The notes beneath the pieces were generated by a model, which was not told where the DNA came from, did no database searches, and saw only the letters and a program-made list of their open reading frames with translations. A DNA stretch of 64,000 nt from Patescibacteria group bacterium (lineage in GTDB: Bacteria > Patescibacteriota > Microgenomatia > Levybacterales > UBA12049). Positions 1,800 to 8,267 of this stretch are shown here, in pieces. The number at the start of each line of letters is the position of its first letter. The stretch's first letter is position 1. The translations under genes were made by a program, and so were the position numbers. The stretch is from contig JBBTXS010000012.1 of the NCBI GenBank assembly GCA_038062115.1, forward strand, positions 23,141 through 87,140. The letters are read 5' to 3'.

Positions 1800-3362
1800 A
1801 TGAAATATATAGGATATTGCAGGAAATCAACGGATGAAAAAGATAGACAGATTTTATCTATAGAAGCTCAAATAGCAGAGCTGACCGAATTTGCTAGACG
1901 CGAAGGTCTGGAAATTTCAGAATTTATTACAGAGGCAAAGACAGCAAAAATTCCAGGCCGTGAACAATTTGACAAACTCTTAATGCTGCTTGAAAAAGGA
2001 AAAGCTCAAGGAATTATCTCATGGCATCCCGACCGCTTAGCTCGTAATTCCATTGATGGCGGAAAGATTATTTACTTACTCGATACAGGAAAACTTCTTG
2101 ACCTAAAATTCCCATCACATTGGTTTGAGAATACACCGCAAGGGAAATTTATGCTTAGTATCGCTTTTAGTCAGTCGAAATATTATATTGACAATCTTTC
2201 CGAGAATGTTAAAAGAGGTTTAAGACAAAAATTAAGAAACGGTGTTTATCCCGGAAAAGCATTTTGGGGATATGCGAACAATAAAGAGTTGGGAATTATT
2301 GAGGTTGATGTGACAGAGTCCAAGATTATCAAAAAGGCTTTCCAGTTATTTGCTAGTGGCGGAAAAACTTTTATGGATATTTCCCGCTTCTTACATAAGC
2401 ATGGACTTACCCAAAAAAACGGCAAAGATCTAAAAATAGACAGGATAAAAGAAATTCTTTCAAATAAATTTTACATTGGCATCATCTTTTACGCAGGAGA
2501 ATACTACGAAGGAAAACATAAGTTGTTTATTTCGAAAACATTATTTGACCGAGCGCAAAAACAGTTCAAATTCACTGAAAGATCAAAGCCCAATAACAAA
2601 CACAATTTATCTTTCTTAGGACTGTTGAAATGCGGTGAATGTAAAGCAAGTATTACCGGAGAAATGAAAATAAAATATTACAAAGAAACCCAAAGAAAAG
2701 CTGAATATATTTATTACAGTTGTACTAAAAAACTGGGAAACTGTTTGCAGAAACCAATTCCAGAGCCGGAACTGGAATTACAAATAAGAAAAGCGGTTAG
2801 CGATGTGGCCTTGCCCGAAAGTTGGGCTAGCGATTGGTATAAATGGCTTGAAAGAGATGAGATAACAGAAAAACAATTGAAAGAAGAAAATTTACAGAAA
2901 TTAAATGAAGAAATAAAAGCTCTGGATCAAAAATTAAATTTTCTTTTAGATAGTTACTTGGACAGCGTTATTGATGCCGATATCTACAAGAAAAAGAAAA
3001 ATGAATTATTCGAGGAGAAACTAAGAAAACAAGAAGAAATTACCAAGTTGCAGACCAATGGTTCAAGTTGGCTCGAACCTTTCAAGGAATTCGTAGATAG
3101 CGCATTACAATGCGGAAAAATTGCGCGCGAAAAAAAAACAAAAGAAGAATTGGCATTCTTCGCAAAAACTGTCGGCTCGAACTTCTTTTTAACTGATCGG
3201 CAACTTTTCCCATCCTACAATTTGGGCTTTGCAGACCTCCAAACGCAATCTCTCGTCCAAAGTCCCCAAACGCAGGCTTTTGAAAAGTCCCAATGTGAGC
3301 GGGATACGGGAGTCGAACCCGTCTTTTCAGATTGGAAATCTGACGTTGAACCGCTCAACTAA
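1800..3362 (+). CDS. Large serine recombinase (resolvase/invertase N-terminal domain, recombinase domain and zinc ribbon). The ORF has no stop until it has read through the right inverted repeat and tRNA-Gly, so the true 3' end is uncertain.
   Basis: The N-terminus YCRKSTDEKDRQILSIEAQ...RLARN is a serine-recombinase catalytic motif. The Cys cluster CGECKASITGEMK...YYSCTKKLGNC is a zinc ribbon typical of large serine recombinases, followed by a coiled-coil region. Confidence 0.8.
   Translation: MKYIGYCRKSTDEKDRQILSIEAQIAELTEFARREGLEISEFITEAKTAKIPGREQFDKLLMLLEKGKAQGIISWHPDRLARNSIDGGKIIYLLDTGKLLDLKFPSHWFENTPQGKFMLSIAFSQSKYYIDNLSENVKRGLRQKLRNGVYPGKAFWGYANNKELGIIEVDVTESKIIKKAFQLFASGGKTFMDISRFLHKHGLTQKNGKDLKIDRIKEILSNKFYIGIIFYAGEYYEGKHKLFISKTLFDRAQKQFKFTERSKPNNKHNLSFLGLLKCGECKASITGEMKIKYYKETQRKAEYIYYSCTKKLGNCLQKPIPEPELELQIRKAVSDVALPESWASDWYKWLERDEITEKQLKEENLQKLNEEIKALDQKLNFLLDSYLDSVIDADIYKKKKNELFEEKLRKQEEITKLQTNGSSWLEPFKEFVDSALQCGKIAREKKTKEELAFFAKTVGSNFFLTDRQLFPSYNLGFADLQTQSLVQSPQTQAFEKSQCERDTGVEPVFSDWKSDVEPLN
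3198..3300. repeat. Right arm of the 103-bp perfect inverted repeat
   Basis: It is the exact reverse complement of 1649..1751 and overlaps the 3' end of tRNA-Gly by about 3 bp. Confidence 0.9.
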
Positions 3363-3368
3363 TCCCGC
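3298..3368 (-). tRNA. tRNA-Gly (anticodon UCC)
   Basis: Manual fold of the reverse complement gives acceptor GCGGGAT/ATCCCGC, D-stem GTTG/CAAC, anticodon stem TCAGA/TCTGA with loop TTTCCAA, and T-stem ACGGG/CCCGT with loop TTCGACT. Confidence 0.85.
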
Positions 3369-3521
3369 GCATATTGATTTTATCAAATGCGATCAGTATT
3401 GTGCAAATGGAAAATTTAAGCTAAAATAACTGTGAACGTCGGGGTGGCGGAATTGGAGCGGAGTCCCGACGAGTCGGGACGAGCTCGCTTGCGAGCGTAG
3501 CGCGAGACAAGCGTGGAAGAC

Positions 3522-3605
3522 GCCGCGGTGGTGGAATGGTAGACACGAAGGCCTTAAGAGCCTTTGTTCCAAAAGAACGTGAGAGTTCGACTCTCTCCCG
3601 CGGCA
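3522..3605 (+). tRNA. tRNA-Leu (anticodon UAA), class II with a long variable arm
   Basis: Acceptor GCCGCGG/CCGCGGC, anticodon stem AAGGC/GCCTT with loop CTTAAGA, variable-arm hairpin GTTC-CAAAA-GAAC, T-stem GAGAG/CTCTC with loop TTCGACT. Confidence 0.8.
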
Positions 3606-3607
3606 CT

Positions 3608-3681
3608 CGGGGAGTAGCTCAGTTGGCTAGAGCGCACGGTTTGGGACCGTGAGGTCGGAGGTTCAAGTCCTCTCTCCCCGA
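3608..3681 (+). tRNA. tRNA-Pro (anticodon UGG)
   Basis: Acceptor CGGGGAG/CTCCCCG, D-stem GCTC/GAGC, anticodon stem CACGG/CCGTG with loop TTTGGGA, T-stem GGAGG/CCTCT with loop TTCAAGT. Confidence 0.85.
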
Positions 3682-3699
3682 CCCCATACTCATTTCTAA

Positions 3700-4515
3700 T
3701 CAATCTCTAATAGAGAATATTGTGCCAGTTTTTGGCAATGTCAATCTTGGAAGCGAAAAAGGTTCGGGGTTTGAATCTTCTTCTTTAATTTTTGCATTAG
3801 GACAGTTTTTTAAATGACAATCAACTTCTTGGCAAAGTCCGCAGAGGTATTTTTTTTCGTGCTTTTTTTCTATCGCAACATATGTAATTTTATACATATT
3901 ATTTGGAAACGTGTCTATAATGGTACGGGTTTGGGATTCTTCCTTACGTAAAGTTGGAGTGTTGATAACTAAACTATCATGTATTCCTTTTCGCGCATTC
4001 GCCTCAACTTGCGCTCTCATAAGAATTAACGCAAGCTGATCTCCTGAAACTTCACGCAAAAATGCAATAATCTCTGCAGCTATGCTTCGCACATCTGTGG
4101 AATATTTTGATATAACGCTTGCCGCCAAACTTCCCGCAGTTTCCCAGTCGTGTCCACCATGATAACAATGCATCATGTCAACTTTATATTTGTCGCTTCC
4201 AAAGCCTCGGGCACGACCTTCATGCGTATCAACTCCTCCTCCAGCAGCAATCACTTTCATCCTCTCAAGAGAAACCAAACCGCTAATCGTAGTTCTTCCC
4301 AAAGAATCGCCTGTTGGTATAACAGAAATGCTTTCAATGGGTACCCCATACGCCAGAGCTACAAGTGCGTGATTTAATTCATGCGAAGCAACACTTATCG
4401 ACTCTCGTGAAACCAAACCCGAACGATTTTCCGGAACAAAAGAAAGAGGCATCGCCTTTTGGAGAGGCGTTTCAACTAATTGCTGTGTAGGGCGACTTAA
4501 CTCTGCTGCCGCCAT
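3700..4515 (-). CDS. Stand-alone FtsH-like (peptidase M41) zinc-metallopeptidase domain protein with a C-terminal Cys4 zinc-ribbon-like tail and no AAA ATPase domain
   Basis: SVASHELNHALVALAYG...KVIAAGGGVDTHEGRARGFGSDKYKVD matches the FtsH protease-domain pattern vAyHEaGHAlva...GGraAE...GasnD. The C-terminus has CGLCQEVDCHLKNCP. Local GC content is visibly higher than the surrounding sequence. Confidence 0.55.
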   Translation of the reverse strand: MAAAELSRPTQQLVETPLQKAMPLSFVPENRSGLVSRESISVASHELNHALVALAYGVPIESISVIPTGDSLGRTTISGLVSLERMKVIAAGGGVDTHEGRARGFGSDKYKVDMMHCYHGGHDWETAGSLAASVISKYSTDVRSIAAEIIAFLREVSGDQLALILMRAQVEANARKGIHDSLVINTPTLRKEESQTRTIIDTFPNNMYKITYVAIEKKHEKKYLCGLCQEVDCHLKNCPNAKIKEEDSNPEPFSLPRLTLPKTGTIFSIRD

Positions 4516-4530
4516 AGTAAGCAGATTTTA

Positions 4531-5136
4531 TCACTTATGGCGGATATATAAAAGATATGGCAAAATGCCTACAAAATTAACAACCGATGCTAATATAAAC
4601 AAAAAATTAAATCCATAAGCGCTTGCTATAAAACCACCAAGCGCTGCAGTTGATGCCATTCCTATAAAGGTAACAGCATCATAGATGCCCCATTCTGTTG
4701 TTTCTTTGTTTTTATCTAGATGAGTTGCAAATAAAGAGTTTTTTACAGGAGATGCTATTCCTAGTCCCATTCCAACGATACCAAAAAATACAAAAAGCGA
4801 CATTACGCCATTGGAAAAAGCAAAACCTAAATACCCCAAACTAATAAACAACATGCCAGCCATTGTAGTAATAAATTTATTAAACTCGTTACTCCTTCCA
4901 AAATATTTACATGTAATCAGTTCGAATACCACTCTAACTATCAAGAAAAAACTGTAGGCACTGGCTGCGATTTGCACGTTTCCGCCTCTTATGTTATTAA
5001 GAACAAAGACGGCAAAAAGTGGAATAACAAAATTATATGCAGACCACAAAAATGCCTCCGAAACTATAAATGCCTTGACGATAGGATTTACCTGAAAATG
5101 CGTTGGATTTCTGCCAAGAAATTGTTCTTTCAACAT
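4531..5136 (-). CDS. Six-TM membrane protein resembling the C-terminal half of an MFS transporter
   Basis: Six predicted hydrophobic helices with Gly-rich helices, e.g. GIVGMGLGIASP. It is only about half the length of a full MFS transporter. Confidence 0.4.
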   Translation of the reverse strand: MLKEQFLGRNPTHFQVNPIVKAFIVSEAFLWSAYNFVIPLFAVFVLNNIRGGNVQIAASAYSFFLIVRVVFELITCKYFGRSNEFNKFITTMAGMLFISLGYLGFAFSNGVMSLFVFFGIVGMGLGIASPVKNSLFATHLDKNKETTEWGIYDAVTFIGMASTAALGGFIASAYGFNFLFILASVVNFVGILPYLLYIRHK

Positions 5137-5189
5137 TTATTGCCTATAAATAATTTTGCAACAGATTTTCTAAAAAAGCAAGACCTCTT

Positions 5190-5993
5190 CTAGCCACTCT
5201 TAAAATAATTTACTGCTCCAAAAACATTATCGGTAACAATATCTATGATTCCAGATTGCTTAAAATACTTAAATCCCGATTCTCTATTTATAACCCCTGC
5301 CATAACTTTAAAACCATTTTCTTCGTAAAATTCTCTTAACTTAGTTAAACGGCTAACAGATATTAATCTTCTAAATAACCGTTCGCTCCCATGCCAATTA
5401 TCAATCCACCCCAGCATTACTCCATAACTTTTGCGAGGCTTTCTAACATAAGAATAAAGAGGAATATTTATGATCTGCAATACCCTAAGTTTAGGATATT
5501 TGGATTGCATACGCAATGCGGTACCAATAAAAAAAGAAAATCCAATAATGTTTACCTGTAACCACAAAGACTTCTCTTCGATTTTTTTTACAATTTTTTC
5601 AACTAGAATTTTAGATGAACTTTTGATTTCTAAAAAAAACTGTATGTGTTTATTATTTGTGATATAAACAAACAACTCATCAAGAAGTAATGGTTCATAC
5701 AATTGTTTCTTATAAAAAGAAGCAAGATCTGTGAATAAAATATTTGAGATTGCAACTTTTTTGTTAGCAATCATTATTCTTTTGTCGTGATGGAGTACAA
5801 TTTTATTATCCAAGGTTAATTGTAGATCGCACTCAACGCCTTTCGCACCCATTTCCAAAGCTTGCTCAAAGGCTACAATTGTATTCTCTTTATTATTAGT
5901 ATTTCTGCCTCTATGAGTAATAATCATGTCCTTATTCCAAACCGTTTCTTTTGTTGGGTTTATATTTCTTATAGATATAATATATCGAGGCAA
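5190..5993 (-). CDS. Glycerophosphodiester phosphodiesterase family protein
   Basis: HRG...ENTIVAFEQALEMGAKGVECDLQLTLDNKIVLHHD is the GDPD catalytic motif (HR..ENT..E.D...T.D..V.HD). Confidence 0.7.
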   Translation of the reverse strand: MPRYIISIRNINPTKETVWNKDMIITHRGRNTNNKENTIVAFEQALEMGAKGVECDLQLTLDNKIVLHHDKRIMIANKKVAISNILFTDLASFYKKQLYEPLLLDELFVYITNNKHIQFFLEIKSSSKILVEKIVKKIEEKSLWLQVNIIGFSFFIGTALRMQSKYPKLRVLQIINIPLYSYVRKPRKSYGVMLGWIDNWHGSERLFRRLISVSRLTKLREFYEENGFKVMAGVINRESGFKYFKQSGIIDIVTDNVFGAVNYFKSG

Positions 5994-6591: not shown

Positions 6592-6724
6592 TAATAAATT
6601 CCTCTATAGATTATATAGCATATAGATATGTATTGCACACCTCCGATGTATGCGGCTACACGGCGCAAAAGCAAATCTATTACATCTCCTTCGCAATTAT
6701 GATATATTAAAAACAGAGTTCAAA

Positions 6725-7498
6725 ATGAAAACACTAAATCTTCTTCTTACATTGTCTTCCCTAAACGTCATTTTAGTTACAATAGAAAGATTTTCTTTCA
6801 CAACAAAAATTATCTTACAACCATATAGTTTTCTAAGACTTCATGAAGTATTCCAAATAACAGTGCTAATACTTATAACTATTGTTATCCCCTTTTTTCT
6901 ATTAAAAGAAATTACTCATAATTTTGATTCGCTAAAAACTGCAAAAGGCACAATCTTAGGACTTTTTTTCGTAGTTGGCGTTTATTTATATGGCACTGGA
7001 AACGGGGTACACGAACTCGCAAGCTACTTATTTAATACATTTTGTCCTATAAAAAATTTTTCATCCTTACAATGCCAAAGCATGTATTTTAATGATTACT
7101 ATTTTGGAAACATATTGTATTTTGTAGGAGCGTTCTTAATAAATATATCTTTGATAATTTTTGAGCGAATAAAACCTAACATTAATTTCTCTAAGAAAGA
7201 TTTAGCCGTAACTTCTATAAATAGTCTTATTCTTGCATTTGCAATTTTTGCTTATTCAGCTTTTGATCGGGTGTTAGTTGGTCTTGTCTATTCTATGTTT
7301 ACTATGATTGTAGCCTATTTCTTTTTATTTACCGCGCACCACAATGCCCCGCTCGTCAGGACAATGCCCCGCCCGTTAGGTCGTGGTGCGGGGTTTACTT
7401 GGAAGAAAAAGTATATTTATATTCCATTTACTTTGTATATAACAATCGCCTATACAATTGGAACCCTAGCCTCAATAGCGATTCGATTTATTCGATAA
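6725..7498 (+). CDS. Polytopic membrane protein of unknown function; its C-terminal region carries an in-frame small repeat element
   Basis: Multiple hydrophobic helices. The ORF could start at 6650, but 6725 (MKTLNLLL) looks more plausible. Residues ...TAHHNAPLVRTMPRPLGRGAGFT... are encoded by the repeat at 7332..7399. Confidence 0.45.
   Translation: MKTLNLLLTLSSLNVILVTIERFSFTTKIILQPYSFLRLHEVFQITVLILITIVIPFFLLKEITHNFDSLKTAKGTILGLFFVVGVYLYGTGNGVHELASYLFNTFCPIKNFSSLQCQSMYFNDYYFGNILYFVGAFLINISLIIFERIKPNINFSKKDLAVTSINSLILAFAIFAYSAFDRVLVGLVYSMFTMIVAYFFLFTAHHNAPLVRTMPRPLGRGAGFTWKKKYIYIPFTLYITIAYTIGTLASIAIRFIR
7332..7399. repeat. Small GC-rich hairpin repeat (family C, ends in GGTGCGGGGTTTACT); related to 26621..26724
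   Basis: Terminal inverted repeat cgcaccac/gtggtgcg, tandem sub-units (a)caatgccccgc, and the same 3' terminus ggtgcggggtttact as the copy at 26.7 kb. Confidence 0.7.
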
Positions 7499-8267
7499 TA
7501 GTATCTTGGCTCCCTCCCAACGCATGAACCCAATCTAATAATGGAGCCCTACGGCTAAAGCCGTGGTGCATATTTAATGCCCTCCTTCGTCCCGCTCAGC
7601 GGGACTACGGAGGGTTATCCGCCACTAGCCGAGGCGACATCCGCCGTAGCTTACCCCACATTCATCCACGACTAAAGTCGTGGTTTTCTGCGAAGGCGGA
7701 TTAATTAAGGAAATAAAACTGCTTAAATGAGATGATGTTATGAGTAGGGGAAAAGATACGAATCTAAAAAAATGTGTAATGCTTATTATCTTTACCTGAT
7801 CTAATCAGAAACTTTTCAAAATTAAGCAGATTTATTACTTTAATCTGCTAGACTAGGAATGAGTATATCAGAAAATGCATGGAATGTCAATAATCACTAT
7901 AGGATAGTAATTAAAGAGGTGTTGAGTCAAGCCACCATTCGGCAATACCCATGGTTTAAGCATGGAGGGCGGAATAGATTTGCAAAAGAGGAAAGATTTC
8001 CCTCAGGGTAAATAATTGATTTCCACTGTTGCAGTGAAGCATAAATTTGGTTCCAATTCTGAAACATTTGGGCTACAGCACGTAATAGTTCACTCTTCTG
8101 ACATGAATTTTATTCTTCGATCCGTCAGCTGACGGAGAGAAGTTTTCAATGATTCTAGTTCTCTCGGCCTTTGGCGGATCGAACAATAATTTTTATGTCA
8201 GAAGTCTGAGTAGTTACTACATCACCTGTAGTTGATTTTGACTAACTCCTCATATATAATCCAAATT

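Follow-up and report, generated by a model that had tools for sequence, protein, structure and literature searches.

M41 proteases have so far been reported, to our knowledge, solely as the protease half of AAA+ machines that are bound to membranes. The active sites of the FtsH-type enzymes lie enclosed in a hexameric chamber, to which the ATPase delivers the substrate. Besides FtsH itself, a search of the literature returned only the plastid FtsHi pseudo-proteases, which retain the AAA motor and have lost the HExxH motif (PMC9020784), but no account of a stand-alone M41 domain or of the family considered here. This family likewise departs from the canonical FtsH architecture, and appears to be the reverse case in that it keeps the active site without the motor. 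Its representative under study is an open reading frame (ORF) of 271 amino acids, running from an ATG to a stop codon (3700-3702) at positions 3700-4515 of the reverse strand, in a 64,000-nucleotide stretch of the genome of a Patescibacteria group bacterium (Microgenomatia; Levybacterales; contig JBBTXS010000012.1, positions 23,141 to 87,140), hereafter termed the window.

An original prediction, made from the letters of the window, had recognized in this ORF a free-standing FtsH-like M41 domain with a Cys4 tail, situated in a GC-rich patch beside a recombinase and tRNA genes, and had entertained a regulatory protease, a toxin- or antitoxin-like cargo and a decayed ftsH fragment as possible interpretations. 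The peptides ASHELNHALVA, AAGGGVDTHEG, GFGSDKYKV and CGLCQEVDCHLKNCP are all found in the translated protein. The claim that it has neither an AAA domain nor transmembrane helices is borne out: Pfam and NCBIfam scans of the protein detected no AAA domain, and no transmembrane helix was found in it, the highest Kyte-Doolittle mean over 19 residues (1.49) falling on a buried helix and strand after the HExxH motif. Our analysis suggests, at a probability of roughly 0.7, that the gene product is a soluble, cytoplasmic, ATP-independent zinc metallopeptidase and a trimmed homologue of the FtsH protease domain (MEROPS M41).

Affinities of the catalytic domain

A word-indexed search retrieved 32 relatives of 202-348 amino acids, the closest of them 88% identical across 100% of the length, and end-to-end homologues range from 88% to 30% identity. 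An exhaustive profile search, which covered 1.84 billion cluster representatives (50% identity clusters), recovered 279 representatives at E<=1e-3, 179 at E<=1e-10 and 94 at E<=1e-30. The best 150 of the 279 are all 82-377 amino acids in length and matched over nearly the whole profile; none of these 150 is of FtsH length or carries an AAA or transmembrane module. A repeat of the homologue search with a profile of 132 sequences gave almost no additional relatives among the matches listed, a scan of genome contigs with a very narrow peptide pattern returned 3 loci, and a metagenome scan returned 15, mostly short. The source records describe the relatives as 'hypothetical protein' of Candidatus Levybacteria and Gottesmanbacteria, with one 1.8-kb contig binned as Woesearchaeota. 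This is a conserved chromosomal family of the Microgenomates, within the Candidate Phyla Radiation (CPR), which is so far unnamed and for which neither Pfam nor NCBIfam has a model.

Comparison of the 132-sequence profile with all PDB sequences recovered 13 FtsH/YME1 chains at E values of 2.4e-5 to 0.011, along with a second colinear stretch in the C-terminal helices, in which positions 134-175 of the family correspond to residues 419-459 of T. maritima FtsH. The site-2 proteases (S2P) RseP and MJ0392 scored E 0.073 and 0.14 with the same profile, and a smaller profile gave the same order. An alignment of 159 diverse family members, from which the conservation counts given below are taken (with a full-length subset of 143), was compared by hhalign with an FtsH protease-domain profile built from E. 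coli FtsH and 120 relatives, and matched it with 96.2% probability (E 2.4e-9) over 44 columns. Against the single E. coli FtsH sequence the probability was 41%, indicating that profiles are needed on both sides. Both the profile and the hhalign alignments place HELNH of the family on the HEAGH motif of FtsH.

Two AlphaFold2 models were obtained, the first from 33 sequences (mean predicted local distance difference test score, pLDDT, 76) and the second from 132 (mean pLDDT 85.2, predicted TM-score 0.75). The second is globular and soluble, without a membrane segment, and its core (residues 21-180) has pLDDT values of 92-98. In Foldseek searches against the PDB, only FtsH-family chains are found in the top 10 matches of the first model and the top 17 of the second, the latter including T. 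maritima, E. coli and A. aeolicus FtsH, YME1, AFG3L2 and FtsHi at probabilities of 0.95-1.0. The probability collapses below the FtsH-family chains, and no S2P, SprT or M78 structure occurs among the PDB matches of the second model, which thus has the M41 fold. The top two fold matches in BFVD are a phage 'Peptidase M41 domain-containing protein' (A0A6J5RJ76, uncultured Caudovirales; probability 1.0, E 0.015) and a giant-virus FtsH. The former, a 214-residue protein represented by a predicted structure only, is comparably short and labelled as an M41 domain alone; unlike the family, it is viral rather than encoded on CPR chromosomes, has 11% identity and shows no sign of the CCHC module described below. 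AAA-less M41-like proteins are therefore already present in databases, though unstudied. In PHROGs, one weak match over the HExxH region was obtained, to a 666-position family of unknown function.

Several results weigh against this assignment. For the window protein alone all Pfam matches are sub-threshold, with M50 (E 0.0023) and M50B (0.0028) slightly ahead of M41 (0.02), and its 15.2 bits miss the PF01434 gathering threshold of 29.9; the only NCBIfam match, to TIGR01241 (FtsH), has E 0.024 and 13.4 bits against a cut-off of 600, and these sub-threshold matches to curated models span only residues ~34-92. When individual members are scanned, M50B is matched by 49 of 132 (best E 1.9e-6) as against 24 for M41 (at E<0.1; best 1.3e-6), with M50 also at 24. 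The confident sequence alignment to FtsH is limited to ~45 residues plus the one weaker C-terminal stretch. A global hhalign alignment, of low per-column confidence, pairs 'IAAGGGVDTH' with 'LYGGRLAEE', 'VRSIAAEIIAFLREVSGDQLALILMRA' with 'ILHAMKDALMKYETIDAPQIDDLMARR' and 'GFGSD108' with 'GASND', so that D108 of the family faces Asp 492 of the 644-residue E. coli FtsH. In this alignment ~50 FtsH residues after the Asp helix (the 'GFSEKLGPL...FLGR' region) seem absent, and because of this apparently missing segment an FtsH-like hexamer is not to be assumed. The structural matches are themselves modest, with a best Foldseek E value of 1.2e-3 and a TM-score of ~0.4 normalized to the full 271 residues. 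Finally, no operon partner that is conserved across lineages and might hint at the substrate was found at the homologous loci, the neighbours glmS, GreA, CysRS, Crp, LexA, Xre and a spermidine-synthase/FemAB-like gene (see below) each being lineage-specific.

The Pfam scores could be taken to mean that the protein derives from the site-2-protease type (Peptidase_M50 or M50B-like; PF02163, PF13398) as a soluble branch and is unrelated to FtsH. The top match of the single-sequence PDB search, which is the S2P MJ0392 (E 0.052), points the same way, as does the PF13398 label attached to two relatives, the only precomputed Pfam label in the set. However, the matches are limited to the HExxH helix and the hairpin that follows it (profile positions ~8-73 of 200+), a local pattern that, judging from the sequences, is evidently common to the M41, M50 and M50B families. 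The likeness to M50/M50B, marginal in Pfam and seen in a third of the members, leaves the rest of the domain unmatched, and these peptidases are polytopic with the active site within the bilayer, whereas the family is soluble and membrane helices were not found in it. With the family profiles FtsH chains score more than a thousandfold better than S2P and have the second colinear match besides, and in the structural comparison the 17 FtsH-family chains at the top are accompanied by no S2P structure. Since the family profile, the second colinear stretch, hhalign and Foldseek all favour FtsH, M41 is preferred over M50/M50B, and an S2P-type origin appears improbable.

We regard the catalytic domain as homologous to the M41 protease domain but divergent (~15% identity) and shorter. 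The protein lies outside the formal Pfam M41 family and is certainly not an FtsH. The core of the original prediction hence stands, as family profiles, the fold and the uniformly short architecture without AAA all support a free-standing FtsH-like domain, but the protein's own signature does not reach the curated Peptidase_M41 cut-off. In our view the family represents a new architecture within a class of enzymes already known, rather than a categorically new system.

Anatomy and conserved sites

The catalytic domain comprises residues 21-178 (3982-4455, reverse strand, as are all features of the protein given here). It is preceded by a leader (residues 1-20) that is disordered in the second model, to which the structural assignments below refer, and is variable in length across the family; the sequence before HExxH ranges from ~35 to 135 residues, and the longer members are those with longer Pro/Gly/Ser-rich leaders. 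A conserved Pro-containing segment, M-P-L-x-x-V-P-E (residues 22-29), leads into the active-site helix (37-55). This helix carries HELNH (residues 45-49; 4369-4383), with two putative zinc-binding His and a putative catalytic Glu, and is followed by a β-hairpin (residues 60-64 and 74-77) with the sequence S-I-S-V-x-P-x-G-x-S-L-G-R-T. Next come a helix at 83-94 (I-A-A-G-G), a Gly-rich loop, a helix at 106-119 that begins around D108, and three further helices at 124-135, 140-153 and 158-175. An HExxH helix followed by a hairpin of the form I-x-(I/V)-x-P-x-G-x-x-L-G-x-T is also seen in FtsH, YME1 and AFG3L2 (M41, PF01434), and the invariant Asp that the family bears on a later helix may correspond to their third zinc ligand; the C-terminal helices resemble the 'L..kEtl.G.el..il' segment of FtsH. 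Differences from FtsH are equally clear, in that the family is without the AAA+ ATPase, transmembrane anchor and periplasmic domain, has a catalytic domain of ~155 rather than ~200 residues, with an internal segment missing, and HELNH in place of HEAGH, and adds a β-sheet with a CCHC module and conserved terminal peptides. No credible transmembrane segment was found in any of the 159 members: Kyte-Doolittle windows of at least 1.6 fall on the buried helix after HExxH, with the exception of a borderline one (exactly 1.60) further along a single member.

The histidines H45 and H49 occur in every one of the 155 ungapped rows, and E46 is missing from just one of them (154 of 155). D108 (4192-4194), in a G-x-G-x-D motif, is present in all 159 members and is proposed as the third zinc ligand. 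In crystal structures of bacterial FtsH the third zinc ligand is the Asp that corresponds to D649 of AFG3L2. In AFG3L2 zinc is bound by the two His of HExxH and by D649 two helices later, while the substrate runs over the active site as an additional strand (bioRxiv 10.1101/551085). Beyond these residues, G104 is conserved in 99% of the members, and P23, P28, G73, A131 and A168 in at least 90%. The conservation of HExxH, D108 and the CCHC residues across the 159 members exceeds chance.

These counts bear on the notion that the decay of ftsH left this ORF behind or that it is an inactive pseudo-protease. Of the three FtsH modules two are indeed missing, and ~50 residues of the M41 domain seem absent. 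Yet the ORF is full-length and conserved among 279 representatives, its ~15% identity to FtsH speaks against a recent fragment, its catalytic residues are invariant, and it has gained a family-specific C-terminal domain; neither widespread loss of HExxH or D108 nor frameshifts in orthologues were seen. The idea of decay, raised in the original prediction, is thus not upheld by the depth and intactness of the family, and we consider it very improbable.

After a poorly ordered linker (residues 176-195), the C-terminal module (residues 196-246; 3778-3930) is modelled at pLDDT ~71-87 as three strands (196-203, 207-214 and 220-225), the last running into the CCHC site, followed by a helix at 239-246; T198, I200, I210 and Y212 are its conserved residues. 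The site consists of C225-x2-C228-x5-H234-x3-C238 (3802-3843), with each ligand present in 87-92% of the 159 members. Its spacing, C-x2-C-x5-H-x3-C, differs from the knuckle-type C-x2-C-x4-H-x4-C, with the same order of ligands, and Pfam matches to zinc knuckles are weak (zf-CCHC_3 in 2, zf-CCHC_2 in 1 and RYYR-CCHC in 2 of 132 members). We read the CCHC cluster, from its sequence pattern, as a probable second zinc site of structural type. The 'Cys4 tail' of the original prediction is hence a genuine Cys cluster, but it is not of the Cys4 type, as C233 is poorly conserved and replaced by Gly in most relatives, and it does not end the protein, as 33 residues lie C-terminal of it (225-238 of 271).

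The two termini bear short conserved peptides. At the C-terminus PKTGTIF (residues 261-267; 3715-3735) follows a variable low-complexity linker and corresponds to P-x-x-G-(T/I)-I-F in the first family alignment (A1); its pLDDT in the second model is 75, as against 56 for the preceding linker, and 41 of the 143 full-length members have G-x-[IVL]-[FYW] among their last 30 residues. The N-terminal tip, MAAAE (4501-4515), presents a conserved acidic residue on the disordered leader, with Glu at position 4-6 in 101 of the 143, compared to a background of 8.5% per position.

Genomic context and base composition

Directly beside the protease gene, as the original prediction had noted, lies a tRNA/recombinase locus, on the downstream side. 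The tRNA-Pro(tgg) gene (3607-3684, forward strand) ends 15 nucleotides from the protease stop codon, and beyond it are tRNA-Leu(taa) (3522-3606, forward), tRNA-Gly(tcc) (3297-3368, reverse) and a large serine recombinase of 520 amino acids (1800-3362, forward) with Resolvase, Recombinase and Zn_ribbon_recom domains. Upstream, on the same strand as the protease gene, are an MFS half gene, a GDPD phosphodiesterase and a VTT/DedA-type protein, and the remaining window is ordinary bacterial chromosome, with Obg, UvrA/B/C, PyrG and DnaE. The MFS gene (4531-5136) encodes 201 amino acids, amounting to half a transporter (positions 10-171 of a 347-position profile), and is separated by 15 nucleotides from the protease gene, with both its half size and this spacing kept in the two nearest orthologous contigs, L013 and L025. 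The two genes are likely to be co-transcribed.

The proximity of the recombinase gene, at ~340 bp with the three tRNA genes between, raised the possibility that the protease gene is mobile-element cargo (toxin, antitoxin or defence protein) that arrived at the tRNA locus through the serine recombinase, and its GC content, the highest in the window, could be seen as favouring this. But L013 (75% identical at the amino acid level) and L025 have the same GDPD-MFS-protease order at 79-80% nucleotide identity, and L013 is colinear at 79% from window position 7332 down to 3695, just beyond the protease stop codon. No recombinase is annotated, or was found among the ORFs, at the ~25 other homologous loci examined, where the original prediction had suggested looking for one, and clustering of ORFs across the loci shows the recombinase cluster to be unique to the window. 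No relatives were found in the viral contigs of IMG/VR, and PADLOC gave no match.

The base composition agrees with these observations. The protease gene has a GC content of 41.5%, the maximum among the 57 ORFs of the window (mean 34.8 +/- 2.7; z 2.5), and is thus GC-rich as the original prediction had stated, though its surroundings are at 35.3% over the whole window rather than ~33%. The excess resides in codon positions 1 and 2 (GC1 and GC2; z 1.5 and 2.6), whereas position 3 (GC3) is ordinary at 30.1% as against 26.6 +/- 4.2 (z 0.84, rank 7 of 57). Codons 1-180, the catalytic half, are at 45.6% and the C-terminal third at 33.7%, and the peak of 51-55% in the sliding profile at 3300-3750 corresponds to the tRNA genes. 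At 11 of 12 homologous loci in other organisms the gene is 2-8 points richer in GC than its flanks, again via GC1 and GC2, and because of this recurrence the excess is attributed to the amino-acid composition of the family and not to foreign origin. The GC-rich patch is therefore no sign of cargo, and the cargo and toxin/antitoxin ideas can be regarded as largely refuted. The protease gene belongs to the chromosome and has been passed on vertically; the rearranged tRNA/recombinase spot is simply its neighbour.

The Levybacteria genome GCA_016182235 has the order glmU, small ORF, glmS, protease gene within a region of murein synthesis, and the glmS-protease order recurs in several independent contigs, at times with an ORF of 133-157 amino acids in between. 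Elsewhere single lineages have GreA upstream; CysRS and a spermidine-synthase/FemAB-like gene upstream with a Crp regulator downstream; a LexA gene immediately downstream (L004-L006, L014); or, in Gottesmanbacteria, a divergent gene for an Xre-type helix-turn-helix protein upstream, and at further loci the protease gene lies among unannotated ORFs. CCHC knuckles commonly bind single-stranded nucleic acids. Together with the LexA, Xre and GreA neighbours, the CCHC knuckle of the family would suit a nucleic-acid-associated regulatory protease of the SprT/Spartan or IrrE/ImmA kind, in which the CCHC site would attach to DNA or RNA, and a protein bound to DNA or a LexA/Xre-type repressor would be the target of the peptidase. 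However, none of these neighbours is shared by more than one lineage, there is no family-wide partner, and the zinc-knuckle Pfam matches are few and weak. The fold is M41-like and not SprT- or M78-like, and, unlike ImmA/IrrE (M78), the family has no support from the M78 profile, which matches 1 of 132 members at E 0.036. This proposal seems unlikely, and it is a functional refinement of the FtsH-related peptidase favoured here rather than a different fold assignment.

A small Zincin_1 protein (PF06262) is encoded near the protease gene in the above Levybacteria genome (L001 14151-14519), and another lies directly downstream of it in contig L017 (900-1250).

The tRNA/recombinase locus has peculiarities of its own. 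The recombinase gene is bracketed by a 118-nucleotide inverted repeat (1649-1766 and 3183-3300), of which the outer 103 nucleotides are identical and the 7 mismatches all lie toward the inner ends; an assembly palindrome is unlikely because the arms diverge at these ends. The right arm encodes the C-terminus of the recombinase, and the left arm, if translated from the opposite strand, would yield that peptide too, but with another tail (ORF 1605-1727). The bracketed gene looks like a cassette that can invert itself, or like what a recent inversion has left behind. The listed recombinase ORF, whose true stop is uncertain, runs antisense through most of tRNA-Gly(tcc), and the right arm ends ~3 nucleotides inside the 3' end of this tRNA, a junction of the kind expected for a tRNA-associated recombination site. 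In L013 the protease gene is succeeded by a tRNA-Leu(taa)-tRNA-Pro(tgg) pair of the same orientation (5030-5221); the window pair is inverted and ~69% identical to it, and a 45-nucleotide remnant at 3412-3456 matches the region upstream of the L013 tRNA-Leu and the first 19 nucleotides of that tRNA, suggesting that a segment next to the recombinase was inverted or replaced locally. The GC-rich spacer between this remnant and the intact tRNA-Leu (3457-3521) has no ORF or tRNA call, and 3369-3521 has no match in Rfam.

Further upstream, an intergenic segment at 7505-7715, in a region without a long ORF (7500-8230), has a GC content of 46-49% in a 35% GC genome and several perfect hairpins. It folds much better than shuffled sequences, with z-scores of -3.8 and -4.4 for the two strands, with no Rfam family matched and no conservation in L013, and it is a candidate structured non-coding RNA. 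Close by, a tandem 20-nucleotide direct repeat (ACAATGCCCCGCTCGTCAGG / ACAATGCCCCGCCCGTTAGG) occupies 7341-7380 within the 3' end of the ORF at 6650-7498, and 7394-7473 is 92.5% identical to L013, as against 79% for the flanking genes.

Proposed mode of action and implications

Based on the homology to FtsH, the Zn2+ ion would be held by H45 and H49 of the active-site helix and by D108 of the helix at 106-119, with E46 as the probable general base. By analogy with AFG3L2, the substrate may be bound as an extended strand against the hairpin at 60-77. With no unfoldase attached, the range of substrates would be confined to short peptides, unfolded chains or disordered parts of a specific partner. 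The β-sheet with its CCHC zinc knuckle might serve as a recognition module for protein or nucleic acid, and the acidic N-terminal tip and the C-terminal G-x-I-F, both on flexible linkers, could act as regulatory or docking peptides and are candidates for autoinhibition. We favour a housekeeping or regulatory peptidase of these reduced genomes over a function in defence or mobile elements; a regulatory role, as entertained in the original prediction, may apply.

More tentatively, and with considerable doubt, the family may be seen as a deep Microgenomates-wide lineage of catalytically intact, ATPase-free M41 proteases in which the zinc-knuckle module and the tethered terminal peptides provide substrate selection or self-inhibition. 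Such a lineage may represent the unfused module on which the FtsH-type AAA+ proteases build, or may stand in, specifically in the CPR, for a part of the proteostasis machinery.

The family is of relevance to the evolution and gating of M41 proteases as well as to the biology of the CPR. An M41 site without motor and anchor poses the question of how it is protected and made specific without gating, and raises that of whether the protease module is older than its AAA+ fusion. The analysis also removes a false lead, as neither the GC excess nor the adjoining recombinase marks the gene as foreign cargo. The family provides a name and a testable activity for several hundred 'hypothetical proteins' of the CPR, bacteria whose proteostasis is poorly known.

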